Positions 15,057-39,849 of a DNA stretch of 64,000 nucleotides are shown here, one piece after another; position 1 is the stretch's first letter; every line of letters starts with the position of its first letter. Position numbers and translations under genes: made by a program. Source of the stretch: Patescibacteria group bacterium (GTDB taxonomy: Bacteria > Patescibacteriota > JABMPQ01 > JAQVVF01); assembly GCA_041662665.1 (NCBI GenBank), contig JBAZSC010000001.1, positions 577,511 to 641,510 of the forward strand. Reading direction: 5' to 3'. Under the pieces are notes generated by a model. It was not told the origin of the DNA and searched no databases. It worked only from the letters and a program-made list of their open reading frames with translations.

Positions 15057-15491
15057 CTACTTTCTACTTAAACTTATATAATTCTTTACAACTATTATTG
15101 TTACCCCAATTAAAATAATTCCAAAAATTTCAATCATTACACTCAGCAGATTTATTTTTACACCAATCTTATTTACAAAAAATATCACTAACGGCACCAA
15201 AGCCAAAGATAAAGCAATAGATAAAATAATTCTTTCAACCCAATCAATACCGTCATTTTTTTCGTCAGAACTATTTATCAGCGTCGTATCAGCGTTAGTA
15301 TCAGCGTCAAATCCGCTTCTACGAAAAAAGACATAGCTCCACACAAAACCAGGAATAAATAAAACATAAATAATTCCAAATACCAATCTAAAAGAATTTG
15401 CAAAACCAAGCCAAATAGAAGATATTAAAGCAATGATTGACAAAATTGCTAGAAATATTAATATAAATTTAATGATTTGTTTTGGATCCAT
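15057..15491 (-). CDS. small 4-TM membrane protein, a stand-alone paralog of the N-terminal module of 22307..24409
   Basis: Shares LFIPGFVWSYVFFRRSGFDADTNADTT and VERIILSIALS...KIGVKINLLS with the large protein. The NADTNAD loop is encoded by an ATCAGCGT repeat element. Confidence 0.6.
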   Translation of the reverse strand: MDPKQIIKFILIFLAILSIIALISSIWLGFANSFRLVFGIIYVLFIPGFVWSYVFFRRSGFDADTNADTTLINSSDEKNDGIDWVERIILSIALSLALVPLVIFFVNKIGVKINLLSVMIEIFGIILIGVTIIVVKNYISLSRK

Positions 15492-16445: not shown

Positions 16446-16455
16446 TCTTTATAAA

Positions 16456-17827: not shown

Positions 17828-17831
17828 TTTT

Positions 17832-22306: not shown

Positions 22307-24409
22307 CTATAAATTATCTTTATTGATTTTGAATATTATAATTGATCCTAATTTGTCTGAGTCAAAAAACTCAGCTTTTTTTTCTAAAAAATCTGTATTT
22401 AATAATTTTTCCTGATATTTCCAGTCGATGTCAGCTTTTGTACTAAAAGATCCAAGTACTTTTTTGCCAGCATAGACAAATTCAATATTATTTTTTTTAT
22501 AAAATGATCTCGATAATTCAGAATTTGGATCAAAGATCCAAGGACATTCGCCTTTATAATCATTGCAATCGCTACCGTCGATTACAGCTCTGCCAGTCAA
22601 TAAATTAATATAGCTACCCCAACTTCTCATTGCTAATGTCTTTGGATAAGATAAAATAATAGCATTTTGGTCAGTATTATTTCTTATCCAAGATAAAGCT
22701 TTTGCATCAGAATCTTGCAATCTAACTTTTTGATTATATTCTGTTGAATCTTTAATGAAATTTAATGTACTAAATGACAATATTAATATTAAAACAATCT
22801 TGAGAGCTAAATAGCTTTTATTTCTCAAAAATAATCCAATTGTCAAGAAAAAATAAGCAATCATAACTATCAAAGGCAAAGCTAAATCCAAAGCAAATCT
22901 ATTAGGTAAAATAAAAAATGAAAAACGAGTCCCAATAAACAAAGCGATAGCCCAGGAAATTATAATAATTTTTTCAGCTTTCTGTAGAGACTTAAAAAAG
23001 AAAAAGGGGATTGATATCAAACCAAGGCTAAATATAAAAACACCTAAATGATTATCATACGCTTTCCAAGATACAGCTAATTCTGGTATTTCCGAAGTTA
23101 CGCTCACATCGTTAATTTGGTTATTTACAGACATTGCACTTTGGAATTGAGCAATTATACTATTTAGAAAAATTTGAGAATAATATTCATAAGTCAAAGG
23201 CAATATTAGGACAAACAAAGAAAATATAAGAATTAAGAAATTTTTAAAATAAATATTCTCAAAAATTTTTAAATGTTTTTTAAAAGAATCAAATCTCGAT
23301 AAAAATTTAAGAATAAGTAATAAAAATGCTATCAAAAACAAAGTCAAAATCATATATGTACTCGATAGTGAATGAGTCAAAAACACTCCACCAAAGAATA
23401 AAAAACATAATATTATTTTTTTATAATTAATTTCTTTGCTCAAAAATAGATCCTTCAGAAATGCCAAGCCAAACAAGAATAAGCACAATCCAGCAAAAAG
23501 ATTTAGATAAGTACCAGTTGAATAAGAATTACCAGGCTGTCTTGATATAAAAACTAGCAAAACCAAAGAAATAATTGCTATCAACTCATTTTTAAATAAT
23601 TTCCTCACCAAAAAATAAAAAGCAAGATAAGAAATAATAAAAATAAATGGCACGAAAAATATTGTTGTTGTTACAACGTCTTGACCAGTAAAAAACGTTT
23701 CTAATGCTAATAGAGTGTGAAATAATGGGGGATCTAAAGATCCTTCCCAAGCTTTTGTAAAACCTTGTTCAATAATTCCTTTTGCTTCAGTCATGTGTCT
23801 TGTTGGATCATCACCTGGAGGAACAATGTAGTTATGATGGAAAATTCCGTAATAAAAATGGAAAGCTAGCAAAATAATCAGCAAAACCAAAATTATCGCT
23901 CCGAGATTATTTTTAACAAATTGCCAAAAATTAACTTTTTTTGATGCTATTATCGCAGAACTAAAAAAATTCTTATTAAAACCGTTTCTCAAAGAATAGA
24001 TTGATTGAGAAACAATAAATTCTTTGACAAATAAAATTATCAAGCCAATCATAATCAACAACGATATTTCAATCGCAGAGCTTAACAATGTAATTTTCAC
24101 ACCAAGCTTACTTGATAGAAACACAATTAAAGGCGACATTACAAAGGATAATCCAAACGACAAAATTATTCTATCCGCCAATCTTATAGAACCATTTTTC
24201 GGCGTTCTATCAGCGTTAGTATCAGCGTTAAATCTGCCTCTAAGCAACAAAAAGCCCCAAACAAAACCTGGCAAAAATAAAGCAAACACACTTCCTAAAA
24301 CAAATCTTAAAGATTCAAGTGCTGTAAATTTAAAAGTCAAAACAAAAAAAGCAACCATAGCAGATGCAATAAAAAGAAAAACGCCAAAAATAACTTTTTT
24401 ATTACTCAT
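22307..24409 (-). CDS. GT-C membrane glycosyltransferase, candidate STT3/AglB-like OST paralog, with an extra N-terminal 4-TM module
   Basis: The N-terminal 140 aa are paralogous to 15057..15491. The core has GDDPTRH and LDPPLFH, like 2706..4265. The C-terminus has SWGSYINLLTGRAVIDG, which is WWDYG...TGR...D-like, and matches the C-terminal domain of 2706..4265. Confidence 0.55.
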   Translation of the reverse strand: MSNKKVIFGVFLFIASAMVAFFVLTFKFTALESLRFVLGSVFALFLPGFVWGFLLLRGRFNADTNADRTPKNGSIRLADRIILSFGLSFVMSPLIVFLSSKLGVKITLLSSAIEISLLIMIGLIILFVKEFIVSQSIYSLRNGFNKNFFSSAIIASKKVNFWQFVKNNLGAIILVLLIILLAFHFYYGIFHHNYIVPPGDDPTRHMTEAKGIIEQGFTKAWEGSLDPPLFHTLLALETFFTGQDVVTTTIFFVPFIFIISYLAFYFLVRKLFKNELIAIISLVLLVFISRQPGNSYSTGTYLNLFAGLCLFLFGLAFLKDLFLSKEINYKKIILCFLFFGGVFLTHSLSSTYMILTLFLIAFLLLILKFLSRFDSFKKHLKIFENIYFKNFLILIFSLFVLILPLTYEYYSQIFLNSIIAQFQSAMSVNNQINDVSVTSEIPELAVSWKAYDNHLGVFIFSLGLISIPFFFFKSLQKAEKIIIISWAIALFIGTRFSFFILPNRFALDLALPLIVMIAYFFLTIGLFLRNKSYLALKIVLILILSFSTLNFIKDSTEYNQKVRLQDSDAKALSWIRNNTDQNAIILSYPKTLAMRSWGSYINLLTGRAVIDGSDCNDYKGECPWIFDPNSELSRSFYKKNNIEFVYAGKKVLGSFSTKADIDWKYQEKLLNTDFLEKKAEFFDSDKLGSIIIFKINKDNL

Positions 24410-24617: not shown

Positions 24618-24660
24618 TTTTGAATTTATCAGCGTTAAATCAGCGTTAGAAATCAGCGTC
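24618..24660 (+). repeat. 4 x ATCAGCGT element (periods 11-13-11)
   Basis: atcagcgttaa atcagcgttagaa atcagcgtcga atcagcgc. Confidence 0.85.
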
Positions 24661-25237
24661 GAATCAGCGCTTGCTTCAATCTTGCATAAAAATTCTGCAT
24701 TTCATTTTTACTATAATTTTTCTTTAAGTTTAAGTCAATTTCAGTCAGTGTTAACAAATTTTGATCTGTTACACCAGCTGCAGAAATCGCAAAAGTCAGC
24801 TTATTATTTTTAATATAATAATTACTCAACAAAAATTCTCTCAAATTAAAATTAGCACATGCTTTTTTCCATTGTGAATCGATATCTGTAACTTTTGTAT
24901 CAACAAATTCATATTTATCAAATGCTTTTTCAGCACCTAATCTTATTGAACTTGGCTGTCCACTATATTTTACGCATAAATTTGCATCATTAAAATTGGG
25001 TGGAATTCTAACTGAAAAATAAATTAATTCTGCCTTAACTTTTTGCGAATAATCACTGCCAACATGTTCAACGGGCAATAGTCTATACCAAGGATACGGA
25101 TTAGAAAAACGCAACGAATCATCAGGATTAAAATTATAAACAATTGTCATATTCTTATCAAACACAAAAAACATTGATAAAACATAGATTATCACTGCGA
25201 CAAACAGAATCCAAATTATTATCTTCAAAATTTTCAT
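24653..25237 (-). CDS. membrane-anchored hypothetical protein (N-terminal TM plus an extracytoplasmic domain)
   Basis: An ORF bracketed by two ATCAGCGT elements. The C-terminal ALIRR is encoded by the element. Confidence 0.5.
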   Translation of the reverse strand: MKILKIIIWILFVAVIIYVLSMFFVFDKNMTIVYNFNPDDSLRFSNPYPWYRLLPVEHVGSDYSQKVKAELIYFSVRIPPNFNDANLCVKYSGQPSSIRLGAEKAFDKYEFVDTKVTDIDSQWKKACANFNLREFLLSNYYIKNNKLTFAISAAGVTDQNLLTLTEIDLNLKKNYSKNEMQNFYARLKQALIRR

Positions 25238-25254: not shown

Positions 25255-25297
25255 GTCAGCGTCATATCTGCGTTAGAAATCAGCGTCGAATCAGCGA
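25255..25297 (+). repeat. 4 x ATCAGCGT element (periods 11-13-11)
   Basis: gtcagcgtcat atctgcgttagaa atcagcgtcga atcagcga; nearly identical to 24618..24660. Confidence 0.85.
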
Positions 25298-25299: not shown

Positions 25300-27435
25300 T
25301 TAGAAGTTTGCTTCCAAAGAATCTTCTAAATAATTTCTAAAATCTTCGATAGCATCAACATCATAAACTCGTTCAGATAAATATAAATTATTTTTATCTT
25401 TTGCTTTATATAAACTCAATGATAGAAAATTATCAACAGAAGATAAAGCTGGCACATTATACATTTTATCAGCAACTTTTTTATCTTTTGTATCGCTATT
25501 TTTAAAATATTTTATAGATAGCGTACTAGAACTTAATGTTTTATAGTTCAAATAATTTTTCTTTAATAATTCCAAATTATCAACTCTATACGGATAAACA
25601 ATTAGTTCATCTTTTGCCACAAGAAGATAAACATGATCATAATCCATTACTATTTTATTTAAAGTTTCAAATGATTTTTCATCCAAAAAAGTTTTTAATT
25701 TGATAATAACGTCATCATTATCTAAATCATTTTCAAATTTATTTGCTTCAACTAAAAATTCTTTTTTAGAAAATAATTCTCTTCGAGGAACTGCATTAAC
25801 ATTATATAAATAATGTAAAACGTAAGACCATTTTTGCCAAGCCCATCCAGGATTCATTACGACTAAATCGTCAGTTTTAAAATTTTGGCTAATTTTTTGC
25901 AACTCCTTATCCATTCCATAATTTTCTCTATAGAAAACAATTGGCAAAGATATCAAAAAATTTCCAACAATTAAAACTATGATTGCTTTCTTAACAAAGC
26001 TTGTTAAATTTGAATTTAAATTGCTTAATCTAAACCATACAAAAGAAACAAGAATAAAGATGAAAGGCAAGAATATCGGATAAAATCTCCTCATAAACCA
26101 AGGCTGATCAATTGCAATTTGTGCTCGAAATAAAAATAATAATGAAGGCAGACATAATATAACTAAAATAAATTCTTCTTTTTTAAAGACTTTTTTGTAA
26201 AGTCCAATCAAGACGATAACAAAATAAAACAAAATTAAGTAAAAACCTAATGCTTTAAAATTGAATTGTATTTGATAAAATGACCAAGCCAGATTTGAAC
26301 CTTTTAAAAATAAAACAATTTCGTATAAACAAGCACCTAAAATGATTATACTGAAAATAATTCTTTGACCATTATTCATTAAATAATCAATTGTCTTTTT
26401 GCTAAAACCAAAAGCATATTTTCGAAGAAGATAATATACGATTAAGCATAATGCCAAAATCAAAAGCAAAACTAAAAAGACTTTAGAAAACAATTTCCAT
26501 GGATCGTAAAATTGTTTATAAAAATAAGCTAAGCCATTATATTTCTGCAGATACGCACCAAAAAATACTAAAGAAGCAACAGTTATGCCTGCACAAATAA
26601 GAGAATTCCATCCTAATTCGATTTTTTCGCCAAAATAACTAACTCTTAATTTCTTAATAGCCAAAATAATTAATAAAATTGCGATTGCAACAGCAAAATA
26701 CAGTAATGCCTCAGCACGAATAAAGATACAGAATAATAATGAATATAAACCAAAAAACAAACTAGATATTTTTTTGTTCTTCAAGCCTTCCATAAATAAT
26801 AAAATTCCAAGCCAGAAAAAAACCATAAACAAATTTTCTGAATTCAATCTCTTCGTAAACCAGAAAGTAGTATAAAAAGTACTAAGCAACAACAACGAAA
26901 ATAAAGCAGCCTTTCTGTTTGCCAAATCAGAAACAAGACAATAAATCAAACTTAAAAACAAAATCATTAATAAGCAATTCGCCCAAAGCATTGCATTTAT
27001 TCCGCCAAAAAGAAAATAAACAGCTAAATAAACAATATAGCCAGGCAAAAATTGAGATGTAAAAACATTTCCTTCTAAATTTCTAAAACCTGAATAAGCA
27101 TGAGTCAACTGATCATTAAAAGATAATGAACTAGTTTTAGTCAGCATAATCGCTGCTGACATATAACTCGCATCATCTCTGCCAGAAGGAATTCCATGAT
27201 GAAAAAAAGAAACAATTAAAGAAAAAACAATGATTGCTCCAAAAACAATCAGATCTTTTCTCTCAAGCTTAATTTTTTGTTTTCTCAGAAAAATCCAAGC
27301 TAGAAAACCTATACCAAATAAAATTAAAGATATAATTACGCTAATTTTATTAAACCAGCCAAAAACAGCCAAACCTAGCAAAAAAGTTAGACAAAAAGCA
27401 AAAAATAAAGTAAAATATTTTAAACAGTTAAACAT
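25300..27435 (-). CDS. GT-C family membrane glycosyltransferase (PMT/ArnT-like, PMT_2-type)
   Basis: A 711 aa polytopic protein. The first loop has HGIPSGRDDASY, a DD/DE motif typical of the ArnT/PMT fold. Confidence 0.6.
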   Translation of the reverse strand: MFNCLKYFTLFFAFCLTFLLGLAVFGWFNKISVIISLILFGIGFLAWIFLRKQKIKLERKDLIVFGAIIVFSLIVSFFHHGIPSGRDDASYMSAAIMLTKTSSLSFNDQLTHAYSGFRNLEGNVFTSQFLPGYIVYLAVYFLFGGINAMLWANCLLMILFLSLIYCLVSDLANRKAALFSLLLLSTFYTTFWFTKRLNSENLFMVFFWLGILLFMEGLKNKKISSLFFGLYSLLFCIFIRAEALLYFAVAIAILLIILAIKKLRVSYFGEKIELGWNSLICAGITVASLVFFGAYLQKYNGLAYFYKQFYDPWKLFSKVFLVLLLILALCLIVYYLLRKYAFGFSKKTIDYLMNNGQRIIFSIIILGACLYEIVLFLKGSNLAWSFYQIQFNFKALGFYLILFYFVIVLIGLYKKVFKKEEFILVILCLPSLLFLFRAQIAIDQPWFMRRFYPIFLPFIFILVSFVWFRLSNLNSNLTSFVKKAIIVLIVGNFLISLPIVFYRENYGMDKELQKISQNFKTDDLVVMNPGWAWQKWSYVLHYLYNVNAVPRRELFSKKEFLVEANKFENDLDNDDVIIKLKTFLDEKSFETLNKIVMDYDHVYLLVAKDELIVYPYRVDNLELLKKNYLNYKTLSSSTLSIKYFKNSDTKDKKVADKMYNVPALSSVDNFLSLSLYKAKDKNNLYLSERVYDVDAIEDFRNYLEDSLEANF

Positions 27436-27446: not shown

Positions 27447-27489
27447 TTCAGCGCAATATCAGCGTTAGCAATCAGCGTCAAATCAGCTT
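27447..27489 (+). repeat. 4 x ATCAGCGT element in a divergent promoter region (periods 11-13-11, terminal atcagcttctaca)
   Basis: ttcagcgcaat atcagcgttagca atcagcgtcaa atcagcttctaca. Confidence 0.85.
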
Positions 27490-27512: not shown

Positions 27513-28463
27513 ATGAAAAATCAGGAAGTTAACAACTGGCCAAAAGTAACAATCGTTTTTCCTAATTGGAATGGCAAAAATGATACTTTAGAATGCTTGA
27601 AATCATTAGCTAAGCTTAATTATCAAAAAAATAATTTAGAAATAATTATTGCCGACAATGGTTCAAACGATGGCTCTCAAAAAGCAATCAAGCAGGAATT
27701 ATCAAAAATGACTGGTTACGCAAACTTGAAATTAATAGAAATTGGCCAAAATATTGGCGCTCCAGCTGCTCTGAATCTAGCAATCAAATCTGCAAAACAA
27801 AATTATGATTTTATCTGGAAATTAGATAATGATGTTGTAGTTGATCAAAATTCATTATTATGTTTAGTCAAAGAAGCAATAAAAGAAAAAAATATTGGCA
27901 TGGTTGCGGGCACAAATTACTATTATGATCAACAAACAACTATTTGGGCAATTGGTGGAAAAGTTAATTTAACATTTGGATTAAGCCGTAATATTGGTAA
28001 AAACAAACAAGACCAAGATCAATTTAAAAAAGATTCTACTTTTGATTATTTGCCAGGATGTGCCTTATTAGTAAAAAAAGAAGTAATTCAAAAAATTGGC
28101 TTGCTAGATGAAAAATATTTTGTATATTATGATGAAACAGATTGGAATATCAGAGCAAAACAAGCTGGCTTTGATTTAGTCTACATTCCAGAAGCAAAAA
28201 TCTGGCACAAAGCATCAAGATCAACACAAGAAGGAAGCATTTTTAAAAACTATTACTTAACCAGAAATAAGCTATTATTTATCAAAAAATTTAATAATAA
28301 AAAGCTAAATATAGTTTTACCGATTGCCGCGATCTGCTTAGTTGACCTTCCATTCCGCTGGATTTTTAGAAGCAAAATAAAAGATCTGCCGAATATTTTA
28401 AAAGGTGCGACTTGGGGAATAATCGATGCCTTAAGTAAATATCCTAAAATAAGAAAGTTCTAG
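27513..28463 (+). CDS. GT2 glycosyltransferase
   Basis: Carries VTIVFPNWNGKNDTLECLKSL...IIADNGSNDGS. Confidence 0.85.
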   Translation: MKNQEVNNWPKVTIVFPNWNGKNDTLECLKSLAKLNYQKNNLEIIIADNGSNDGSQKAIKQELSKMTGYANLKLIEIGQNIGAPAALNLAIKSAKQNYDFIWKLDNDVVVDQNSLLCLVKEAIKEKNIGMVAGTNYYYDQQTTIWAIGGKVNLTFGLSRNIGKNKQDQDQFKKDSTFDYLPGCALLVKKEVIQKIGLLDEKYFVYYDETDWNIRAKQAGFDLVYIPEAKIWHKASRSTQEGSIFKNYYLTRNKLLFIKKFNNKKLNIVLPIAAICLVDLPFRWIFRSKIKDLPNILKGATWGIIDALSKYPKIRKF

Positions 28464-28530
28464 AGTTTAGAAATTTAAGCATTAAAAATTTAATAGAAAT
28501 TAGAAATTGAAAATTAGAAATTCGCTATAT
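28464..28530 (+). repeat. tandem TWGAAAT heptamer array
   Basis: tagagtt tagaaat ... tagaaat tgaaaat tagaaat. Confidence 0.6.
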
Positions 28531-29592
28531 ATGCTAAAATTTTTCTTCAAATATTTAATTAAAGATAAAATCAGACTAACAACTTTCAACAAATTAGTTA
28601 TTTTAAAATTGTTAAAACATTCCCTCAAAAAATCAGAAATGCCAGAATCATATCTCTATGAATATAATGCCAAAACAATTCAAAAGACACTTGACTTCAT
28701 GCACAAAAAACAAGATACAATTGATTCAATGTGGTTGCAAAGAGGCTTAATCTGCGAAAATAAAAATTTTAAAGACACATCAAAAATCGCCAATGGTTCA
28801 ACAACCACACTCAAACAAACTAATGGCAAAAATTATTTAACTGATGAAGATTTGAGTTTTATCGAAAAAAATGATCCAGAAAAAGCAAAGATAATTAGAG
28901 AAACACACCTGCAAATGGAGGATTTCTATAAAAAAGCACTGTGCAATAAAAACTTGATTTATCATCCTGAAGAATTAGCAAAAATAGGCCAAATCTTAAA
29001 TCAAGGCTTAGCTTTTAAAAAAGATTTTACTTTTCATCGTGGAGAAATTAATAATTCCTTAAAATTATATTTCAATCGAATAGGGGAGTTCAAAAAAATA
29101 GATAAAACTGGAATTTTTGTTTTTGATGAAAAAATTGATTTATTAGTAAAAGGTTCGGAATTTATTTTTAATTTAAAAACTGCCAAAGCAATCGAGAAAA
29201 AAACTGGAGGAAAATTTTATGCTTTAAATCCTTTTGCCAAAAAATATATTGCTCCAAATGTTATCAGAGTTTTAAATACTGGAGTTTATGATTTGCCACA
29301 TCTTGGCCATGCTTCAAAAATAAAGAATCTAAAACAAGCAATTGCAAAAAATGGCAAATTAATCATTGGTTTAACCAGCAATAAAAATGTCCGAGGCATA
29401 AAAAACAAACAAGTTGTATTTTTAGCAAAAGACCGTAAAACAATGCTTGAATCATTAAAATATCCAGATAAGATAATTCTTGAACCAGGCAATAGCAAAA
29501 TCTTCAAAGAATTCTATAATTACGCTCAATTACCTTTTTATACAAAAACAATTTATAATTTTAAATCCATATTTAACAGAACGAACAATTGA
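28531..29592 (+). CDS. two-domain protein: N-terminal domain of unknown function plus a C-terminal HxGH cytidylyltransferase-like domain (TagD/RfaE-dII-like)
   Basis: GVYDLPHLGHAS is the HxGH nucleotidyltransferase motif. Start trimmed to the ATG at 28531; the track start is a TTG inside the repeat array. Confidence 0.6.
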   Translation: MLKFFFKYLIKDKIRLTTFNKLVILKLLKHSLKKSEMPESYLYEYNAKTIQKTLDFMHKKQDTIDSMWLQRGLICENKNFKDTSKIANGSTTTLKQTNGKNYLTDEDLSFIEKNDPEKAKIIRETHLQMEDFYKKALCNKNLIYHPEELAKIGQILNQGLAFKKDFTFHRGEINNSLKLYFNRIGEFKKIDKTGIFVFDEKIDLLVKGSEFIFNLKTAKAIEKKTGGKFYALNPFAKKYIAPNVIRVLNTGVYDLPHLGHASKIKNLKQAIAKNGKLIIGLTSNKNVRGIKNKQVVFLAKDRKTMLESLKYPDKIILEPGNSKIFKEFYNYAQLPFYTKTIYNFKSIFNRTNN

Positions 29593-29600
29593 TAATAAGA

Positions 29601-29639
29601 TTCTGCTTTTTCTGCGTTAGCTTCTGCGTTCTTCTGCGT
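29601..29639 (+). repeat. 4 x TTCTGCGT element (periods 9-12-10)
   Basis: ttctgcttt ttctgcgttagc ttctgcgttc ttctgcgtc. Confidence 0.85.
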
Positions 29640-29650
29640 CAAATTAAAGT

Positions 29651-30445
29651 ATGCCCACATTAACAGAATTAAAAAGAATCTGCCGTAAAAAAAATTACCA
29701 TAACTATTGGTCAAAGATTTTTTCTCGCCATATTTCCATTTATTTCACTTGGTTTTTTTGTCATACACCAATTACTCCAAATCAATTAACTTTTATTCAA
29801 ATAATTTTAGCTTGGCTAGCAGGATTATCATTAATTATCTGGCAATGGAACGGAATTATCGCCTGGATAATTTTAATGCAATTATCATTTATCTTTGATC
29901 TAGTTGATGGAGAAGTTGCGAGATATAAGAAAAAATCATCTTTATTTGGTGTAATCTTAGATTCATTTGGCCATGTCTTAATTAATCCAGCAGTATATTG
30001 GAGTCTTGCAATTTTTGTCTATTATCAAACATTTGATGTCTGGATAATCTACTTAACAATTATTTTATCAATCTTTTTAATTTCTCCATCAAAACACGCT
30101 TTAATGCGCGGAATTTTATTTTTAACAACCAAAAAAGACAATCCAATCTATAATTACGAAAATCTAAGCAAGCAGTTTAAACAAGAATATCTTCCTCCAA
30201 AACAAAGGAATAGCTCTCTAAAACAAGTTGAAAAAATATTGAAAACAATCTCCGAATTTCCAAATGACATGAATATTTTCTGCATTTTATTAATCTTAAC
30301 TCTAATTTTTCATAATACATTATTCACAACAATTGGCTTGGTTTTCTTTTCTGGATTAATAATCATAAAAGAATTTTACTTTTTATATCAAATCAAAAAG
30401 AAGAATTTAATTGAAAAAGAATACCTCAAGATTTATCAAAAATAA
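29651..30445 (+). CDS. CDP-alcohol phosphatidyltransferase family membrane protein
   Basis: DLVDGEVARYKKKSSLFGVILDSFGH matches DG-x2-AR-x8-G-x3-D. Confidence 0.7.
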   Translation: MPTLTELKRICRKKNYHNYWSKIFSRHISIYFTWFFCHTPITPNQLTFIQIILAWLAGLSLIIWQWNGIIAWIILMQLSFIFDLVDGEVARYKKKSSLFGVILDSFGHVLINPAVYWSLAIFVYYQTFDVWIIYLTIILSIFLISPSKHALMRGILFLTTKKDNPIYNYENLSKQFKQEYLPPKQRNSSLKQVEKILKTISEFPNDMNIFCILLILTLIFHNTLFTTIGLVFFSGLIIIKEFYFLYQIKKKNLIEKEYLKIYQK

Positions 30446-30492: not shown

Positions 30493-30513
30493 GCGAAATA
30501 ATTTCGTTTTTTT
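30493..30513 (+). terminator. intrinsic terminator (cgaaa-taa-tttcg plus a T-run)
   Basis: Read directly after the CDP-alcohol phosphotransferase gene. Confidence 0.5.
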
Positions 30514-30542
30514 GTTATCTTTAAGCCAAAAACCAAAAAATA

Positions 30543-30571
30543 TTGACATTTTATTGAAAAAATGCTATCAT
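30543..30571 (+). promoter_or_regulatory. sigma70 promoter of small gene D (TTGACA-N17-TATCAT)
   Basis: The -35 consensus and the 17 nt spacer were read directly. Confidence 0.5.
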
Positions 30572-30601
30572 TATATGTTCACTCAAGCCAGGGAGGAAAG
30601 A

Positions 30602-30925
30602 ATGGCCAAGAATAAAAGACATGAATTGTTCGAAAGGTTGCATGAAATTCTTGGCAAATATCCGACTTGTCTCGAGACAAAGCCAGAAGATTTCAGATTC
30701 ATCATGTTGAAACTTGCTCCAAACAAAGCAGAAGGTTTCCTGTTCGAAGGAAGAAATCTGAGAGATGACAAAATTTACAGATTTCTTGTATACAAAGAGG
30801 CAGAATCCATCAAATTCGTTCTTTCAATCGATGGTGAAATCACCAAGCAAAGCTCCTTCTATCCGACCGCCACAGAAATGACATCACTTTTCGAAGAAAC
30901 TATCGACCACATCCTCATGTTCTAA
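30602..30925 (+). CDS. small cytoplasmic protein, cassette family member D (107 aa)
   Basis: SD GGGAGG sits 5 nt before the ATG at 30602. The C-terminal TIDHILMF strand is shared with cassettes A-C. Confidence 0.6.
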   Translation: MAKNKRHELFERLHEILGKYPTCLETKPEDFRFIMLKLAPNKAEGFLFEGRNLRDDKIYRFLVYKEAESIKFVLSIDGEITKQSSFYPTATEMTSLFEETIDHILMF

Positions 30926-30975: not shown

Positions 30976-31007
30976 CTTTATAAACTTTATAACTTTAAGA
31001 ACTTTAT
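30974..31007 (+). repeat. 4 x AACTTTAT element (periods 9-8-9)
   Basis: gactttat aa aactttat aactttaa g aactttat. Confidence 0.8.
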
Positions 31008-32575
31008 AGACTGTTAGTCATCACATTTTTAACAACATTAACTGGAATATTTACAAAATCCTTATAAATTTCACTTGCCGGCTTCCCATCCATGTATTCC
31101 GGTACTTGCAACCCCATATAATTCAAAACAGTTGGCGTAATATCCAAAATACTGATTGGTTTAATTTCCTTGCCAGCCAAGATATTTGGACCTAAAGACA
31201 TAAATATTCCATCTTGATCATGATATGAATTTGTATGCGATGTCGTTTCCACAAAAAGTTTATCATCAAATCTTGCAACAGCCAATCTTTTTTCACCATT
31301 AACTTTAAAAATAATGTCTGGCGCTTCAGCAACATAATTTCCATGATATTGCTCTTCACATGACATTACTTCTGTAAAAACTTTATCGCCATTTGGATCA
31401 GTAACCAACTTTAATTTTTCAATAATTTCTGATCTTAATTTTTTATATTCTTCTTTACTGACAGTTCCATTATTCTCTCGACCTATCAAATTAATATTTA
31501 CGCCCCAAGTTGATTTTGCGCCTAATTGAGCATAAGCAGTTGTATTTTTCCAATCAATCGTCTTTGTTGATTGCGGAATATTTTCTCTTATAATATTTTT
31601 AATTGATCTTGGAACAATATTCCTAAATTTATCAATAAACTTATTTTTAAATAATTTCTGTCTATCAAATTTAATTAAGTGAAAAAATCTGCGAAGTAGG
31701 GAAGTATTGCCTTGTTTTTCATGAACTTGTCTCCAGCCTTTTGCAACAACATCATTAATTTCTGATTTTTTGTATTGCATATAACCATTCTGATTCAACC
31801 AAGCCATGATATTAAATGTTTGATCATAATCATTAAAGCCATGATCAGACATAACAAATAATCCAGTTTCATTATCCATTAATTTCAAAATCTTGCCCAT
31901 CAAATCATCAAGAGTTTTATAAGTCCTAATAACCTTGTCTTCTTCATGCCAAAAATCATGCCCACAAATATCTGAACAACGAAACACAATCATAGAAAAA
32001 TCCCATTTTTCAGAAGTATAATATTTTTTCCAAATTTCATATCTTGCTTTATCAACTGAAACCATTGCATCAAATCTTTCTTCTCCGCCTTTATGTCGTA
32101 AATTTAATTCCATTGAATCAATAACATAATTTTGTTTTCGAAGCTCTTGTTCAAAAGACAATGGTTCAGCATATCTCTGAGTTGACAAAGATAATAGTCC
32201 GCCAACTAATTTGCCATTAATGCTTTCTGGAGGATAAGTCATTGGCACATTCCAAACCAAGCATCTCTTGCCATTTTCTGACAATATTTTCCATAATGAT
32301 TTAACTTTTACATCAGAAAAAGTATGAATTTTTCGATCTTCAATATTGAATTTATGCGTTGATAAAAAATGAAAGATTCCATGTTTGCCAGGATTCACGC
32401 CAGTATAAAAAGAAGGCCAAGCTGGCACAGTCAAAAAAGGAATTGTACTTTTCAAAATTCCATGACTTCCTTTTTCTAAAATATGTTTGAATGTTGGCAA
32501 TAAACCTTGATCACTATATTTTTTTATAGCTCTAAAAGTTCCGCCATCTAAACCCACGATTAACGCTTTTTTCAT
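31004..32575 (-). CDS. alkaline-phosphatase-superfamily type I phosphodiesterase/nucleotide pyrophosphatase-like enzyme
   Basis: The N-terminus is ALIVGLDGGTF...VPAWPSFYTG, and it carries SDHG. Confidence 0.7.
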   Translation of the reverse strand: MKKALIVGLDGGTFRAIKKYSDQGLLPTFKHILEKGSHGILKSTIPFLTVPAWPSFYTGVNPGKHGIFHFLSTHKFNIEDRKIHTFSDVKVKSLWKILSENGKRCLVWNVPMTYPPESINGKLVGGLLSLSTQRYAEPLSFEQELRKQNYVIDSMELNLRHKGGEERFDAMVSVDKARYEIWKKYYTSEKWDFSMIVFRCSDICGHDFWHEEDKVIRTYKTLDDLMGKILKLMDNETGLFVMSDHGFNDYDQTFNIMAWLNQNGYMQYKKSEINDVVAKGWRQVHEKQGNTSLLRRFFHLIKFDRQKLFKNKFIDKFRNIVPRSIKNIIRENIPQSTKTIDWKNTTAYAQLGAKSTWGVNINLIGRENNGTVSKEEYKKLRSEIIEKLKLVTDPNGDKVFTEVMSCEEQYHGNYVAEAPDIIFKVNGEKRLAVARFDDKLFVETTSHTNSYHDQDGIFMSLGPNILAGKEIKPISILDITPTVLNYMGLQVPEYMDGKPASEIYKDFVNIPVNVVKNVMTNSL

Positions 32576-32599: not shown

Positions 32600-32716
32600 T
32601 AATTTAGTCATAATATAATACGAATTTACGAATTATGCAAATGTTGCGAATATACAAATACGACGATTTGCATATTTGTATCATTTGCATTTATTTGTAT
32701 ATTCGTATTATATTTT
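32600..32716 (+). repeat. palindromic region built from ATTYGYAT-type 8-mers; the 3' 28-mer is identical to the pyrG leader
   Basis: atgcaaatgttgcgaatatacaaatacgacgatttgcatatttgtatcatttgcatttatttgtatattcgtattatattttca. Confidence 0.7.
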
Positions 32717-33818
32717 CAAACAAAGACAAATACTTTCCACAAATTCTATCCCAACTATATTGTTTAGAATTATATTCAAATGAATTTCTGGCAAACAATC
32801 TCGCATAATCTGGATCATTCAAAAATTTATTTATGTTCTTTATGAATGATTTCGAATTCAGAGATTCAACTAAAACACCATTTTTTTTATTTTTAATTGC
32901 ATCTTTGATGCCTTCAATATCAGAAGCCAAAACAGGTAAACCCCAATTTGAAGCTTCAATTGCCACAATTCCAAAACCTTCCAAATCATTCTTAATTTTT
33001 ATATTTGGCATTACAAAGACATCAGATGCATAACAAACTCTTTTTAATTCTATTTCAGAAAGTCTGCCTAATAAAAAAACTCTATTTTCCAATTTCTGTT
33101 TTGAAATAATACTTTTGATTCTTGAAGCATCATTTCCAGATCCAACGATAAGATAATCAATACTTTCATCTAAATTTGGCATTACATTTTTCACAAACCA
33201 AGCCACGCCTTTTCTCTTTATTAATCTTCCGACAGTTATCAAAACTTTTCTTTTTTTCATCTGCTTTTTACAATATTTAAACAGATATTTTTTATAACTT
33301 GATTTAACTTTTAAATAAGACAATCTAGATTTATGCAAAGAACTCAAAACATCATTTTTATAAAAATCAACGCCATTTGGAATAAACAAGCACTTTTCTT
33401 TTGGAACATTTCTTTTCACACATTCATCAATTGTTGAATTTGAAACACAAATAACTTTATCCAAATGTTTTAATTGTCTGACAATAACAAATTGATACAA
33501 AGGATTTGAATAAGTCACATCCAATCCATGAGCAGTTATCAAAACAGGTTTCTTTGTTAAAAATTTCAAAATAGAACCTGCCATTGCCATAAAAGAATCG
33601 CAGAAATAAATCAAATCGCAATCGCGCGACATAAAAAAACCTTTGATTATAGAATAGGGAATAAACCAAACTAAATGCCATTGCGATCTTTTTAAAGCAA
33701 TCAATCTTTTTTGACAATCAATATTCTCAATCAAACCCTTGCTATATTTTTCCATTCCACCAATTTGCGGTGGATATTTTCTAGTTATAAATAATACTTT
33801 CATAAATTTTAAAAGCAC
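32691..33818 (-). CDS. GT4 glycosyltransferase
   Basis: Carries EGFGIVAIEASNWGLPVLASDIEGIKD. The C-terminal NIIRIYK is encoded by the shared 28-mer. Confidence 0.8.
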   Translation of the reverse strand: MLLKFMKVLFITRKYPPQIGGMEKYSKGLIENIDCQKRLIALKRSQWHLVWFIPYSIIKGFFMSRDCDLIYFCDSFMAMAGSILKFLTKKPVLITAHGLDVTYSNPLYQFVIVRQLKHLDKVICVSNSTIDECVKRNVPKEKCLFIPNGVDFYKNDVLSSLHKSRLSYLKVKSSYKKYLFKYCKKQMKKRKVLITVGRLIKRKGVAWFVKNVMPNLDESIDYLIVGSGNDASRIKSIISKQKLENRVFLLGRLSEIELKRVCYASDVFVMPNIKIKNDLEGFGIVAIEASNWGLPVLASDIEGIKDAIKNKKNGVLVESLNSKSFIKNINKFLNDPDYARLFARNSFEYNSKQYSWDRICGKYLSLFENIIRIYK

Positions 33819-33823: not shown

Positions 33824-33866
33824 ATCAGCATCGTATCAGCGTTCGAAATCAGCGTAGAATCTGCTT
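33824..33866 (+). repeat. 4 x ATCAGCGT element (periods 11-13-11)
   Basis: atcagcatcgt atcagcgttcgaa atcagcgtaga atctgcttctat. Confidence 0.85.
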
Positions 33867-34811
33867 CTATTTCCGAAATTCCATCCTTTTTATTTTATAC
33901 AATATTTCCTCCAATAATTTTCTATTCCATCCAATTGCAGATCCTAACAGCCCAATCACTAACACTTGAAAACCAATCATCATCAAAGCACCAGCCAAAA
34001 TCAAAGATTGAATATGGCCAGTTCCATTGCCAATAAGATAATAATATAAAAACCTAATAACAAATAATAAGCCAGCACCAAATAGAATAGAGCCCATTAT
34101 ACTCATTACTCGCAATGGTTTATAAATCGTAAAAGTTCTTGTTATAACCATCAAAGATTTTACAATGTGAGACGGAATGCTTTTGATCAATCTTGATTTT
34201 CTATTCACTTTCCTTGCACGAATTGGAACTTCAGCAATCAACATATCATGATCAAGAGCTTGAATTACTGATTCATGAGTATAAGTATGTTTTGATAAAA
34301 TATTTATTTTCATTGCCGCTTCTTTTGTATAAGCTCGAAATCCAGAAGAAACATCATATTTTCTTGGCAAATCAACAACTTTATATACAATATAATTTCC
34401 AAACATGTTTCCATATTTATTGAATTTCGGCATAAAATCCAAATCTCGCACACATCTATTTGCAATCACAATGTCAGCCTTATTTTTCAAAATTGGAGCA
34501 ATCAAATCAGGAATTCTTGTCTGATCATAGTGATTATCAGCATCAGTATTTACAATAATATCAGCCCCAAACCATAATGCAGCAGTTACCGCATCTTTGA
34601 AAGTAATTGCCAATCCTTTATTTTTTTTATGTGAAATAACATAATCAGCGCCAGCTTCTTTTGCGATGCTTGCTGTATTATCAATTGACCCATCATCCAA
34701 AACTAGCACTTCTACTTTTTTAATACCAAAAATCTGCCTAGGAATTTCTCTAATCACTTCAGCAATATTCGCTTCTTCGTTAAATGCCGGTATTGTAATA
34801 ATTAATTTCAT
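33867..34811 (-). CDS. GT2 polyprenyl-phosphate sugar synthase (Dpm1/GtrB-like) with a C-terminal TM anchor
   Basis: Carries ITIPAFNEEANI...VLVLDDGSIDNT and two C-terminal TM helices. Confidence 0.75.
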   Translation of the reverse strand: MKLIITIPAFNEEANIAEVIREIPRQIFGIKKVEVLVLDDGSIDNTASIAKEAGADYVISHKKNKGLAITFKDAVTAALWFGADIIVNTDADNHYDQTRIPDLIAPILKNKADIVIANRCVRDLDFMPKFNKYGNMFGNYIVYKVVDLPRKYDVSSGFRAYTKEAAMKINILSKHTYTHESVIQALDHDMLIAEVPIRARKVNRKSRLIKSIPSHIVKSLMVITRTFTIYKPLRVMSIMGSILFGAGLLFVIRFLYYYLIGNGTGHIQSLILAGALMMIGFQVLVIGLLGSAIGWNRKLLEEILYKIKRMEFRK

Positions 34812-34980: not shown

Positions 34981-35337
34981 ATGAAAATCGCCAAAATCAG
35001 AAAAAACAGAGCTATATCAGCTCAAAAAATCAGAGAAGACATGTATGCTACGCTTCTCAACTTTATGCTCGAACTCAACCAGCGTCTACCCTTTGACACA
35101 GATAGCCTCCATGAATTAGAAGGTATTACAGATGACCTTGAACAAAAAGGTGAAACAAGACTAGAGATTACAACAGATAAACCAAATCAAGTTATTGAAA
35201 TTTTCGCTAAAATTAACACCAGACACAGCAACGATAGTGGTATTTTTCTTCCTGGCACAAGATTCTCACTTAGCATAGCTCCACCTGAAGTTAACAATTC
35301 AACAATCGTTTTACACATCAGATTAGTACTTTTCTAA
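34981..35337 (+). CDS. small cytoplasmic protein, cassette A (118 aa)
   Basis: SD GAGGAGG is present. The C-terminal strand is TIVLHIRLVLF. Confidence 0.65.
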   Translation: MKIAKIRKNRAISAQKIREDMYATLLNFMLELNQRLPFDTDSLHELEGITDDLEQKGETRLEITTDKPNQVIEIFAKINTRHSNDSGIFLPGTRFSLSIAPPEVNNSTIVLHIRLVLF

Positions 35338-35410: not shown

Positions 35411-35453
35411 TATTCAATTGTACATTCTCAACTCAAGAGAGGAGGAAAGAAAA

Positions 35454-35825
35454 ATGACCACCGACACAAACGAACTCAGAGAATTTCACAATAAATATCT
35501 AGAAGCACTTAAAATCGTCACAGCAATGCTTCAACAATACGAAAACGCTGTTCAAACACTACTAGATCAATATCCTGACATTCTCTCAATCATGACCCAA
35601 AGCGACTGGAATTACATGGTAAAACAAGCTCTGCTTTATGGAACACATTCTCAAGACTTTACAGGTTACAAATTACCAAAAAAATTTTTCTTCCAAAACC
35701 AATGCCTGACTATCAAACCGTCTCTTGAAATTTCTTTTGAAACGAAAGATGAAGACAATGAACCTTCGGGTTTCTGTACCACAAAAGTTACCATCAAAAT
35801 TACTTCGCACCCTTTGAACCAATAG
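35454..35825 (+). CDS. small cytoplasmic protein, cassette B (123 aa)
   Basis: The ATG at 35454 follows the SD GAGGAGGA; the track start at 35418 lies in the promoter. The C-terminus is IKITSHPLNQ. Confidence 0.65.
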   Translation: MTTDTNELREFHNKYLEALKIVTAMLQQYENAVQTLLDQYPDILSIMTQSDWNYMVKQALLYGTHSQDFTGYKLPKKFFFQNQCLTIKPSLEISFETKDEDNEPSGFCTTKVTIKITSHPLNQ

Positions 35826-35887: not shown

Positions 35888-35925
35888 CATTTAAATTGTT
35901 CCTTCAACAAGGAGGGAAAGAAAAA

Positions 35926-36318
35926 GTGACACCAGAAGAATCCGCAAGTTTTACCCAAGATCTCCAACATCTTTCAGAACATGGTTCTCGCTATTTAAAG
36001 TTATATTTTCTAGTTAGAAATGAATGGAAACGACTTTTTAGTAATCTGTATCTAGGCGAAAGTCCAAAAGATGTAGAACAAATTGCTCTAGAATTGATCA
36101 TGAAAGGCAAATCAGAAAATAGCTTAGGACACTACGGAACGGTTGGAGATATCATTCAAGCGTATTTAAATTTCATGTCACTACTTCCCGAATCGGAAAT
36201 TATTAATGTCGAAATGAAATGGAATGAGAGTACTGATAAACAAATTGATAAACCAAATATTTATATTGATGTTACATTTTTCCTAATCCAACATCCCTTG
36301 AATATTCAAAAAGACTAA
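35926..36318 (+). CDS. small cytoplasmic protein, cassette C (about 130 aa, GTG start)
   Basis: The GTG at 35926 follows the SD GGAGGG; the track's TTG start at 35896 is unlikely. The C-terminus is FFLIQHPLNIQKD. Confidence 0.55.
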   Translation: MTPEESASFTQDLQHLSEHGSRYLKLYFLVRNEWKRLFSNLYLGESPKDVEQIALELIMKGKSENSLGHYGTVGDIIQAYLNFMSLLPESEIINVEMKWNESTDKQIDKPNIYIDVTFFLIQHPLNIQKD

Positions 36319-36352: not shown

Positions 36353-36392
36353 TTCTGCGTTTTTCTGCGTTCACTTCTGCGTATTTCTGCGT
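36353..36392 (+). repeat. 4 x TTCTGCGT element (periods 10-12-10) overlapping the flippase 3' end
   Basis: ttctgcgt tt ttctgcgt tcac ttctgcgt at ttctgcgt; it encodes the flippase C-terminal NQRRNTQK. Confidence 0.85.
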
Positions 36393-37859: not shown

Positions 37860-37947
37860 TTCAGCTTTCGTATCAGCGTTAGAATCAGTGCGTAATCAAC
37901 TTCTACATATCAGCGTTCGAAATCAGCGCCGAATCAGCTTCTACATA
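37860..37947 (+). repeat. two consecutive ATCAGCGT-family elements (4 plus 3 units), each ending in atcaRcttctaca
   Basis: ttcagctttcgt atcagcgttaga atcagtgcgta atcaacttctaca t atcagcgttcgaa atcagcgccga atcagcttctaca. Confidence 0.85.
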
Positions 37948-38028
37948 AATTTAACACAAAAATACTATTTTGTGAATTTATTAAAAATGCTAAACTACAT
38001 TAAACAACAAAATTATATTAAAAACAAA

Positions 38029-39849
38029 ATGAAAAAAGTAACAATATCTCTTTTTATTGTTAGTTTAATAATTTTATTAGGACTTCCTGTCCAAGCCCAG
38101 CCTCAATTCATTTCAACTGATTTTATATTTGATTTTGCTGCTTATGGCGATCCTCAAAATAGTAATGTTGTTCATTTAGAATTAGTTGATCAAATTACTC
38201 CTTTAGCACCATCATTTACGTTAAACATGGGAGATATTGTCCAAAATGCGCTTCTTGAAGAACAGTGGACAATGTTTAAAACTGTAATAACTTCTTTATT
38301 AGTTCAGCCACTCAAAAAAGGACTTGATCGAAATTACTATCCGACAATTGGCAATCATGATATTCCTCTAGAAAATTATCAAAAAACTTTTGAACTAACA
38401 TCAGAATATTATTCATTTGACTATCAAGGATATCATTTTATCAGCTTAGATACCGAAATAGATGGGTTGCCTGACAGTCAACAATATTCTTGGCTTCAAA
38501 ATGATTTATCTATAGCAAATCAATCTGGAAAAAAATCGATTGTCTTTTTTCATGAACCTCTTTATGGAAGATTAATTCATTATACTGAAAATACGGAACT
38601 AAGAAATGCCTGGACTCCATTATTTCAACAAAATAATGTCAAATTAGTTTTTAATGGCCATGCTCATATTTATCAAAGAACATATCCATTATATGACAAT
38701 GCAATAAACTATGATCAAGGCATAATTTATATTACAACAGGAGGAGCAGGTGGAGAATTAGGAATAATTGAGAATAACTGGTGGGCAGAAAAAGAAGAAA
38801 GTGTTTATCATTATGTTTATATTCAAATTACAAATAGCAAAATTATTATTAGCGCAGTAAACGAAGCTGGACAAATTTTTGACAATTTTGAAATCATTAA
38901 CAATAACAATGAAAAAAATATTATTTCAACATCAACTGATCAAAGAAACAAAATTAATTTTTTTTCGGCATCAGGAAAATCAAAATCAAATTCATTTTAC
39001 CCGCTGAATAATTCGTCAAAAACAGGAGTCAGACTTGCAAGCGGAGATATTGATCTAGATGGGAAAGATGAAATTATCACTGGAGCAGGACAAGGAGAAC
39101 AATCATTAGTTAAAATATTTGAATCAGACGGAAGATTAGTAAGTAAATTTCATGCTTTCAAAAAAAATTATTTGGGTGGAATAGATGTTGCTGCCGGTGA
39201 TATAAATAACGATGGTCAAGATGAAATTGCAGTTTCAAAACTAACGGAAAATTCACAGACAAAAATATTTAACTATAATGGAAAAACAATATATTTCGAT
39301 AAAAAAGTTTTCAAAGAATTAATTGGTGCAACTGTTGCATTGGGAGACATCGACAATGATAAGCAAGACGAATTAATTATCGGAACAAATAATGGAATCA
39401 GATCTAAAGTCATTTTTTACGAAATACTTTCTTATTCAAAAAAAGGAAAGCTCAAAAAAATAGAAATTTCGCCATTCAAAAAAGAATATACAAATGGCAT
39501 CGACGTTTCTTCTGGAGATATTAATGGTGATGGCAAAGAAGAAATCGGCATTTCAAAATTAAATAAAAAATCAAAAGTTAAAATTTACAAATACAATAAA
39601 AAAAGAAAAGTTTTAGGAAATTTTAATGCATTTAATAAAAAATATGTAACTGGTACAAACATTGATATGTTTGATACAAATTCTGATGGTATAACTGAAA
39701 TAATTTCTAGTATGACTGAAAGTAAAACAAATCAACCTAAAACAATAGTTCATAATTATCTAGGCAATATTATAACTAAATCCTTTTTATCTATAAACAA
39801 AAAAATATCGAATAACGTTATTTCAATTGGAATAAATAAAAATAAATAA
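38029..39849 (+). CDS. secreted protein with an N-terminal calcineurin-like metallophosphatase and C-terminal FG-GAP/VCBS-like repeats (domain order reversed relative to 18726..20495)
   Basis: The signal peptide starts at the ATG at 38029. The metallophosphatase motifs are AAYGDPQN, MGDIVQN, GNHD, FFHEPLY, NGHAHIYQRT. The repeat motifs are GDIDLDGKDEII, GDINNDGQDEIA, GDIDNDKQDELI, GDINGDGKEEIG. Confidence 0.8.
   Translation: MKKVTISLFIVSLIILLGLPVQAQPQFISTDFIFDFAAYGDPQNSNVVHLELVDQITPLAPSFTLNMGDIVQNALLEEQWTMFKTVITSLLVQPLKKGLDRNYYPTIGNHDIPLENYQKTFELTSEYYSFDYQGYHFISLDTEIDGLPDSQQYSWLQNDLSIANQSGKKSIVFFHEPLYGRLIHYTENTELRNAWTPLFQQNNVKLVFNGHAHIYQRTYPLYDNAINYDQGIIYITTGGAGGELGIIENNWWAEKEESVYHYVYIQITNSKIIISAVNEAGQIFDNFEIINNNNEKNIISTSTDQRNKINFFSASGKSKSNSFYPLNNSSKTGVRLASGDIDLDGKDEIITGAGQGEQSLVKIFESDGRLVSKFHAFKKNYLGGIDVAAGDINNDGQDEIAVSKLTENSQTKIFNYNGKTIYFDKKVFKELIGATVALGDIDNDKQDELIIGTNNGIRSKVIFYEILSYSKKGKLKKIEISPFKKEYTNGIDVSSGDINGDGKEEIGISKLNKKSKVKIYKYNKKRKVLGNFNAFNKKYVTGTNIDMFDTNSDGITEIISSMTESKTNQPKTIVHNYLGNIITKSFLSINKKISNNVISIGINKNK

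Follow-up and report, generated by a model that had tools for sequence, protein, structure and literature searches.

A truncated cytidylyltransferase-like protein and a His-variant CDP-alcohol phosphotransferase form a conserved gene pair within a surface-glycan island of a Patescibacteria group bacterium

Introduction

The structural study of PIPS described eight residues of the CDP-alcohol phosphotransferase (CDP-AP) signature as 'absolutely conserved', identified the fourth aspartate (D4) as the likely catalytic base, reported that its change to Asn nearly abolishes activity and defined the P(D/N)xx(T/S) motif (PMC4634129). In CHPT1, an essential His at D3+1, paired with a Glu at G2+1, has been proposed as the base, with D4 retained (PMC10182977). 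In polysaccharide biosynthesis, pneumococcal capsule loci carry CDP-glycerol routes in which gct or gtp1-3 are found with the transferase wchX (PMC1391919). Here we describe two adjacent genes, A and B, of a Patescibacteria group bacterium. They lie in a 64,000-nucleotide stretch (positions 577,511 to 641,510 of contig JBAZSC010000001.1, assembly GCA_041662665.1), analysed at its full length and referred to below as the window. Gene A encodes an orphan N-terminal region followed by a truncated cytidylyltransferase half-domain, and gene B encodes a CDP-AP with His at D4.

From their sequences, A and B appear to pair a nucleotidyltransferase with a CDP-AP in one module, each of the two departing from the norm of its family. 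We propose, with a probability of about one half, that the pair is a two-step phospho-alcohol transfer module within a surface-glycan biosynthesis island. A preliminary description of this DNA had claimed a phospho-alcohol decoration module using an alcohol such as glycerol or ribitol. The idea survives at the level of the module, carried by the domains, synteny, island and clade association, but nothing points to glycerol or ribitol. Public annotation, of a metagenome-assembled genome with a 645-kb contig, gives both proteins family-level names only, and the literature searched yielded no paper linking CDP-APs with Patescibacteria, CDP-glycerol glycans or phosphonates.

Results

Both open reading frames (ORFs) of the preliminary description, A at 28531..29592 and B at 29651..30445, exist on the + strand, and both of its family calls hold: A matches PF01467 (CTP_transf_like) with 37.7 bits (Pfam gathering threshold 21) and B matches PF01066 (CDP-OH_P_transf) with 47.3 bits (threshold 22). 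Wherever genomic context is available the two genes lie side by side, and synteny of the pair extends to four related genomes. In two of these relatives (loci L125 and L126) the stop codon of A and the start codon of B share bases (TAATG), a sign of translational coupling. The stop of an upstream GT2 glycosyltransferase gene abuts or overlaps the A start in relatives (it abuts in L125/L126), and no terminator-like site occurs between the GT2, A and B genes of the window. A and B are a conserved gene unit, translationally coupled in relatives. The assembly of one close relative is labelled Candidatus Saccharibacteria.

The product of gene B (264 amino acids (aa)) has AF2299 (PDB 4o6m, E = 6.5e-8) as its best solved relative. 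Translation and alignment with AF2299 place the CDP-AP signature, D83xxD86GxxAR-x8-G100xxxD104xxxH108, at 29897..29974 (+ strand). Seven of its eight residues are kept, and D4 is replaced by His108. The motif DG-x2-AR-x8-G-x3-D given in the preliminary description is present (D86 to D104), although it stops one element short, the final signature position being His108. A cytosine-binding motif of the P(D/N)xx(T/S) type, P43-N-Q-L-T47, stands at the start of the first transmembrane (TM) segment. The hydropathy profile, with clear spans at about 46-64, 67-85, 121-145, 203-227 and 224-248 and a weaker TM3 at about 100-118, is compatible with six TM segments.

The substitution at D4 is shared by many relatives of B. 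Of 42 database relatives, 20 have His at this position, 17 have Asp and 5 have Gln or Asn; most of the Asp-type relatives are long proteins resembling AF2299 or IPCT-DIPPS, with a cytosolic domain at the N-terminus. His108 was invariant across 19 aligned His-type members, whose identity to B ranges from 16 to 86%. When the best 80 of 412 confirmed metagenome relatives were considered, 65 had His, 4 had Asp and 11 had other residues. These alignments suggest that His-for-Asp at D4 marks a large and widespread CDP-AP clade and is not a one-off.

Five distant His-type (or related non-Asp) relatives of B were inspected, and all five (5/5) lie in glycan loci that contain a nucleotidyltransferase. 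A WOR-3 locus contains NTP_transferase, Wzy_C and PMT_2 genes; a second locus has a 147-aa CTP_transf_like gene, a phosphonate-type ABC importer, Wzx and STT3; and a third has NTP_transferase, NeuB, a Wzt ABC exporter and PMT. The fourth (L129, 573-10706), with a distant His-type CDP-AP, encodes a fusion of CTP_transf_like with PEP-mutase, NTP_transferase together with Fe-ADH, two LicD, two Wzx and a TagF-like protein. The fifth (L130) encodes an NTP_transferase-Fe-ADH/DHQS fusion, an APH kinase, a second NTP_transferase, GT2 and PMT_2. The L129 locus resembles one for phosphonate and/or polyol-phosphate decoration of a surface polymer. The arrangement NTP_transferase / Fe-ADH / CDP-AP is recurrent among the B-like loci.

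In the 80 metagenome loci, neighbouring ORFs were labelled by phmmer with seeds of known Pfam family, and His-type loci with at least 6 kb of flank were retained for comparison with unrelated background loci that differ from them in taxonomy. A nucleotidyltransferase-like ORF was found in 18 of 27 His-type loci versus 1 of 93 background loci (Fisher p = 7.5e-14) and glycan genes in 15/27 versus 3/93 (p = 2e-9), all of these counts being lower bounds. The orphan region of A occurs in none of the His-clade metagenome loci examined. The pairing of B-like genes elsewhere with intact nucleotidyltransferases suggests that A occupies that slot beside B.

Gene A encodes 353 aa. Its ATG at 28531 is supported as the start by the sequence MLKFFFKY, common to the N-terminus of every homologue. 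The family is small, with 11 relatives at 55-100% identity among 5.8 billion proteins. Besides PF01467, the domain model TIGR00125 gives a score above its cut-off (33.2 bits versus 27.7), whereas the G3P cytidylyltransferase equivalog TIGR01518 remains far below it (28.5 versus 165.4). The matching part comprises residues 244-330 (29260..29520, + strand), which Pfam, hhalign and Foldseek delimit as a β1-αA-β2-αB-β3-αC half-domain of the GCT/CCT type. Since residues 250-317 match PF01467 profile positions 3-65 of 133, only half of the domain is present; in agreement, hhalign pairs residues 246-326 with GCT positions 3-80 of 130 (probability 96%). The best solved relatives of the half-domain, ECT 3elb, PfCCT 4zcp and GCT 2b7l, are all CTP-dependent.

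Within the half-domain, residues 251-262 read GVYDLPHLGHAS. The HxGH motif, H257-L-G-H260 (29299..29310, + strand), is invariant in 11/11 family members, and so are the other catalytic-type residues G251, Y253, D254, K291, N292, K293 and R302. The segment K291-N-K293 aligns with IKHKK of GCT 2b7l, and its Lys pair is invariant. The preliminary description had read A as a TagD/RfaE-like domain fused to an N-terminal domain of 230 aa without assignment; the fusion is real, but the former is only a half-domain and the latter extends over about 243 aa.

All 11 members of the A family end soon after the conserved helix S.IFK.FY (αC). This helix corresponds to GQKIDDIQKY in canonical TagD-like enzymes retrieved with the half-domain profile, so that the A family stops before β4, β5 and the RTEGISST motif. 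A complete five-stranded α/β domain of about 130 aa was not found in A by Pfam, hhalign or structural alignment.

Residues 1-243 of A (28531..29259, + strand) constitute a lineage-restricted orphan region, as judged from profile searches, AlphaFold2 (AF2) models, Foldseek and composition. It has a basic hydrophobic N-terminus and dozens of invariant positions. An exhaustive hidden Markov model (HMM) search with its profile recovered only its own cluster among 1.84 billion cluster representatives, and neither the comparison of the profile with PDB nor the Pfam scan gave a significant match. AF2 reached a mean pLDDT of 39.8 with the 11-sequence alignment and a pLDDT of 62.3 (pTM 0.62) when canonical GCTs were added to it. 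The resulting model is confident for helices at about residues 90-165 and for the half-domain (244-330), and it places a low-confidence β-α-β unit at 193-232, just N-terminal of β1. Foldseek against PDB aligned the half-domain alone (72-88 columns, root-mean-square deviation 1.8-2.3 Å, to 2b7l and PfCCT) and found nothing matching the N-terminal region, so the structure prediction suggested in the preliminary description delivers confident helices but no structural relative for that part.

The identity that the preliminary description had named as its refuter, an NMN adenylyltransferase (NMNAT), is excluded for A: the NF010365 model scores 13.9 bits versus a cut-off of 198 (E = 0.03), no NMNAT appears among the PDB matches, and cytidylyltransferases are the best solved relatives.

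The pair is embedded in a conserved neighbourhood. The GT2 gene directly upstream of A (27513..28463) lies on the same, + strand. Divergent from GT2-A-B is a PMT_2-like GT-C membrane glycosyltransferase gene (25300..27435, - strand; 711 aa; weak PF13231 match, 20.8 bits), syntenic in L125, L126 and L127. Convergent with B is the gene for a type I phosphodiesterase / alkaline-phosphatase-superfamily protein (31004..32575, - strand; 523 aa, no TM segment; PF01663, 129.7 bits), followed by two further conserved neighbours, a GT4 (32691..33818, - strand) and a GT2 with C-terminal TM segments (33867..34811, - strand), all assigned by Pfam and synteny. The order GT-C (opposite strand), GT2-A-B and Phosphodiest-GT4-GT2 (opposite strand) is shared by the window, L125/L126 and L127. 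A relative at 60% identity has GT2, Wzx, A and B, and then Phosphodiest on the opposite strand. This last gene, of about 523 aa, adjoins B in L001, L125, L126 and L127. Its product, predicted to be cytosolic, could be a phosphomutase, pyrophosphatase or phosphotransferase.

A single surface-glycan island of about 55 kb takes up essentially the whole window from about 0 to 57 kb. It contains more than eight GT4 and more than six GT2 genes, three Wzx-like flippases, two PMT_2 GT-C proteins, Wzy_C, DUF1616/DUF6541 membrane proteins, a GDP-mannose dehydratase and epimerase, UDP-galactopyranose mutase, a methyltransferase and a CysD/CysN-like pair. The window ORFs of at least 110 aa scanned with Pfam include no CdsA, PgsA, Pss, TagF-like (PF04464), LicD or TarI/J protein.

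Several other features of the window were recorded. At 15642-18657, a PAPS_reduct-family protein, an EF-Tu-like GTPase (together CysD/CysN-like) and a short Phosphodiest-like protein are encoded side by side; the same trio adjoins the A-B cluster in L001 (12042-14968) and may serve sulfate activation for glycan sulfation. Two large island proteins combine a calcineurin-like phosphoesterase with FG-GAP repeats (18726-20495 and 37888-39849), and a third is a 759-aa NHL-repeat protein (39858-42137). Near the module, four small + strand ORFs (118-140 aa; 30512-30925, 34981-35337, 35418-35825 and 35896-36318) have no detectable mutual similarity, and that at 30512..30925 has no Pfam match; a strong sigma-70-like promoter match, TTGACA-17-TATCAT with TG, is found at 30543-30571. 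The gene for CTP synthase (PyrG), at 60390-62018, is some 30 kb downstream of the module, and behind it come a terminator-like hairpin and a TTCTGCGT array; the proximity of PyrG to CTP-consuming genes is probably coincidental.

The preliminary description had also noted a four-fold element between A and B. An array is indeed present at 29601..29639 (+ strand), made of one TTCTGCTT variant and then three exact TTCTGCGT copies, with unit starts 9, 12 and 10 bp apart, but it is a dispersed repeat that is missing from this junction in relatives. The window holds 9 exact copies of the 8-mer TTCTGCGT versus 1.2 expected, a number reached by 0 of 100 shuffles. Counting the TCAGCGT variant, there are at least 10 TC(A/T)GCGT arrays of about four units each, with starts 9-13 bp apart. 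The (A/T)TC(A/T)GCGT arrays are located at 15278-15307, 24199-24228, 24629-24670, 25256-25297, 27448-27478, 29601-29639, 33836-33855, 36353-36392, 37861-37947 and 62062-62100. All lie on the + strand irrespective of how the flanking genes are oriented, and nine fall at 15-38 kb, inside the glycan island. Those at 36353 and 62062 have the same four-copy architecture as the array between A and B, each directly 3' of a terminator-like hairpin.

No TTCTGCGT array occurs at the A-B junction of L125, L126, L127, L128 or L001. L127 has arrays at syntenic junctions, yet none between A and B, and L125/L126 and L001 have no TC(A/T)GCGT arrays. Since the repeat is dispersed in the window and missing from the A-B junction of relatives, the array is not operon-specific; a role as regulator of the A-B operon was considered and rejected on these same grounds. 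The TTCTGCGT element does not belong to the A-B module; it is a repeat that is dispersed and varies between lineages. It matches no Rfam family, and the TC(A/T)GCGT arrays might bind a protein in the manner of iterons or act as a polar element.

Further occurrences of the repeat were noted. The arrays at 15278-15307 and 24199-24228 fall within the N-terminal parts of DUF1616-type ORFs (15057..15491 and 22307..24409, both on the - strand) and are translated through as ...RFNADTNADRTPKN..., with an equivalent array in L127 at 2715. A four-copy TTCTGCGT array is also found in Saccharibacteria, Wolfebacteria, Harrisonbacteria and Portnoybacteria (candidate phyla radiation (CPR) loci L009, L012, L018, L036, L045 and L073), often with 3-4 inverted copies (ACGCAGAC / ACGCGGAA) a few bases upstream; inverted and direct copies could pair into a long hairpin of modular build, which in RNA would include G·U wobbles. 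In Comamonadaceae (L010, L033 and other Ramlibacter/Caenimonas loci), four-copy arrays spaced 9, 11 and 9 bp are followed by CCGGTTGT. Both junctions of GT2-A-B in the window have gained short spacers containing repeats, TAGAAAT in four copies between GT2 and A (28464-28530) and TTCTGCGT in four copies between A and B; the GT2-A spacer repeat TAGAAATT shows no window-wide enrichment. The L127 A-B junction has a different, 101-bp insert (L127 8039-8139), and in relatives GT2, A and B abut or overlap.

Discussion

Our proposal for A and B starts from domain identities, motif states, gene coupling and the association of the His clade with nucleotidyltransferases and glycan genes, all directly established. 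The protein A, soluble and possibly membrane-peripheral, would bind CTP through its HxGH/KxK half-domain and condense it with a small phospho-alcohol to yield a CDP-alcohol, the orphan N-terminal region replacing the missing β4/β5/RTxGISTT half. If the chemistry of its family applies, the CDP-AP B, probably with six TM segments, would bind this product by means of D1-D3, the PNQLT cytosine motif and a metal ion, and would move the phospho-alcohol to a hydroxyl of a membrane-embedded acceptor, releasing CMP. In this reaction His108 may take the place of the canonical fourth Asp as general base, for which CHPT1 offers a precedent within the family (PMC10182977). As acceptor, a polyprenol-linked glycan intermediate or a glycolipid is the most probable candidate. 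Wzx might flip the product, which the GT-C and Wzy proteins of the island could then use.

Several observations weigh against this proposal. RTxGISTT, β4 and β5 are required for nucleotide binding and catalysis in GCT and CCT. These elements are missing from the alignment of 11/11 A family members, with no remnant detectable elsewhere in A or as a separate RTxGISTT-like ORF in the window, so that the cytidylyltransferase activity of A is only putative. The models of A are partly confident and do not reveal what would complete the nucleotide site. Its half-domain scores 31.9 bits with rfaE_dom_II and 28.5 with TIGR01518, and the HMMs do not resolve cytidylyl- from adenylyltransferases. No enzyme making an alcohol phosphate is visible next to A. 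For its part, B lacks the canonical catalytic Asp and has no acidic residue within 10 positions after H108, and given that PIPS with D4 changed to Asn is nearly inactive (PMC4634129), His108 is only a putative base. Finally, the neighbourhood enrichment compares sets of different taxonomy and was obtained with few phmmer seeds.

An alternative, which we regard as unlikely, is that the pair builds or remodels membrane phospholipid, either in Kennedy fashion, from CDP-choline or CDP-ethanolamine onto scavenged diacylglycerol, or from CDP-diacylglycerol as PgsA and PIPS do. CPR bacteria rely on scavenged lipids, A finds its best relatives of solved structure in ECT and CCT of the Kennedy pathway, and the best NCBIfam matches of B are archaetidylinositol-phosphate, PIP, PS and PGP synthases. 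Nevertheless, no curated equivalog for the known phospholipid synthases of the family (PgsA, PssA, PIPS, AIPS, DIPPS and ClsA) reaches its cut-off on B, the scores being far below (AIPS 53.4/180, DIPPS 47.7/580, PIPS 40/170, pssA 30.9/107 and pgsA 22/109). Moreover, the window ORFs of at least 110 aa scanned with Pfam include no CdsA or other phospholipid gene, glycosyltransferases, flippases and GT-C enzymes surround A-B in conserved synteny, and the His clade is enriched beside glycan genes. CHPT1, which has a lipid acceptor, also relies on a catalytic His (PMC10182977), but that residue is at D3+1 with Glu at G2+1, and B has neither. We give much less credit to the idea that the half-domain of A has no functional link with B and adenylylates a sugar phosphate or cofactor, as RfaE domain II or PPAT would. 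The scores of rfaE_dom_II (31.9 bits) and PPAT (18 bits) are comparable with that of the GCT model (28.5 bits) and the island makes nucleotide sugars; against this, the significant solved relatives of A are all cytidylyltransferases, its translational coupling with a CDP-dependent enzyme is conserved, and NMNAT is excluded.

Half of the fold, including RTxGISTT, is absent from the whole family and was not found elsewhere, which would also be explained if A were a non-catalytic remnant that binds a nucleotide or CDP-alcohol, or acts as a scaffold, and regulates or docks B, the CDP-alcohol coming from an enzyme encoded elsewhere or from the host. The tiny, lineage-restricted family and its low scores to every specific cytidylyltransferase model fit this account, which nonetheless seems improbable to us: catalytic-type residues are invariant among members 55-100% identical, dozens of positions are invariant in the orphan region, and other B-like genes are paired with intact nucleotidyltransferases. 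We find barely credible that A is instead circularly permuted, its missing half (W-x20-GS[ST]T) having been relocated to the N-terminal region. This idea draws on the family-invariant W68-x20-G89-S90-x-T92, whose spacing equals that of DDW-x20-GISTT in TagD-type enzymes, and on the Pfam coverage of 3-132 and gain of 5.7 bits obtained when residues 40-110 were appended to the half-domain. The same test gave a gain of 4.2 bits for a control segment, however, and the TIGR01518 score showed no gain. In constructs based on the family profile, in which every N-terminal segment was tried, the score went from 60.7 to at most 62.9, compared with 62.7 for a reversed control. The N-terminal profile aligned to canonical GCT with an hhalign probability of 0.4%, and AF2 shows residues 47-96 as low-confidence helices, not strands. 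Because the gains across the Pfam, NCBIfam and PDB scans and hhalign were no larger than in controls, circular permutation was rejected.

To our knowledge, the transferases that carry out phospho-polyol decoration are TagF-like (PF04464) or LicD-like, not PF01066 proteins. Extending the two-step transfer proposal beyond this locus, and more tentatively, the His-D4 clade could consist of uncharacterised CDP-APs that put phospho-alcohols or phosphonate analogues, from CDP or CMP donors, onto lipid-linked surface-glycan intermediates instead of synthesizing phospholipids. It would then represent a third decoration class beside the TagF-like and LicD-like enzymes, with the site of the partner A completed by an orphan domain. 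Should A and B act as we propose, the module offers a handle on how ultra-small, host-dependent Patescibacteria decorate their surface glycans, their interface with the host cell. The widespread His-for-Asp clade would contradict the invariance of the eight-residue signature and point to a non-phospholipid role for the CDP-AP family. Likewise, A would be a natural experiment in which half of a Rossmann-like nucleotidyltransferase has been replaced by unrelated sequence.

Four groups of known systems can be compared with A-B. The architecture of A is like that of HldE/RfaE-type fusions, in which an extra N-terminal domain precedes a C-terminal HxGH nucleotidyltransferase, and rfaE_dom_II is among its best NCBIfam matches. 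The N-terminal PfkB kinase of HldE is, however, recognisable and its domain II complete, whereas A has an N-terminal region without detectable relative and a half-length domain. In the Kennedy pathway, CCT and ECT are HxGH cytidylyltransferases related to A, but complete ones with RTEGISTS/T. Their partners are CHPT1/CEPT1; CHPT1 is, like B, a CDP-AP, and has the features proposed for B, namely a soluble CDP-alcohol donor, a membrane acceptor and a putative His base (PMC10182977). It differs from B in the position of this His (D3+1, with Glu at G2+1), the retained D4, its 10 TM segments and its bulk phospholipid product.

The IPCT/DIPPS and AF2299-type archaeal CDP-APs (4mnd, 4o6m) follow the two-step logic proposed for A-B, a nucleotidyltransferase making a soluble CDP-alcohol and a CDP-AP, in their case with six TM segments, transferring the phospho-alcohol from it, and the AF2299 type has the juxtamembrane helix, PNQxT and D1-D3 in common with B. 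Their nucleotidyltransferase has the NTP_transferase fold and is fused to the CDP-AP, whereas A has a gene of its own and joins a truncated HxGH-type domain to an orphan region. They keep Asp at D4, where B has His, and their acceptors are soluble inositol phosphate, while B sits in a glycan island.

The teichoic-acid and capsule loci with TagD/Gct or Gtp1-3 make a CDP-polyol within a polysaccharide locus and use it for phosphodiester decoration, which is the function that the preliminary description proposed for A-B. Among the ORFs of at least 110 aa scanned, the window has no TagF, LicD or TagD equivalog, and the teichoic-acid-like reading of the preliminary description is speculation, because TagF-like, LicD, TarI/J and G3P cytidylyltransferase equivalogs are all missing from it. 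The distant B-like loci do resemble these systems in their NTP_transferase and Fe-ADH pairs, LicD genes and TagF-like gene, and the pairing of NTP_transferase with Fe-ADH may, by analogy, correspond to the CDP-glycerol routes of pneumococcal capsules.

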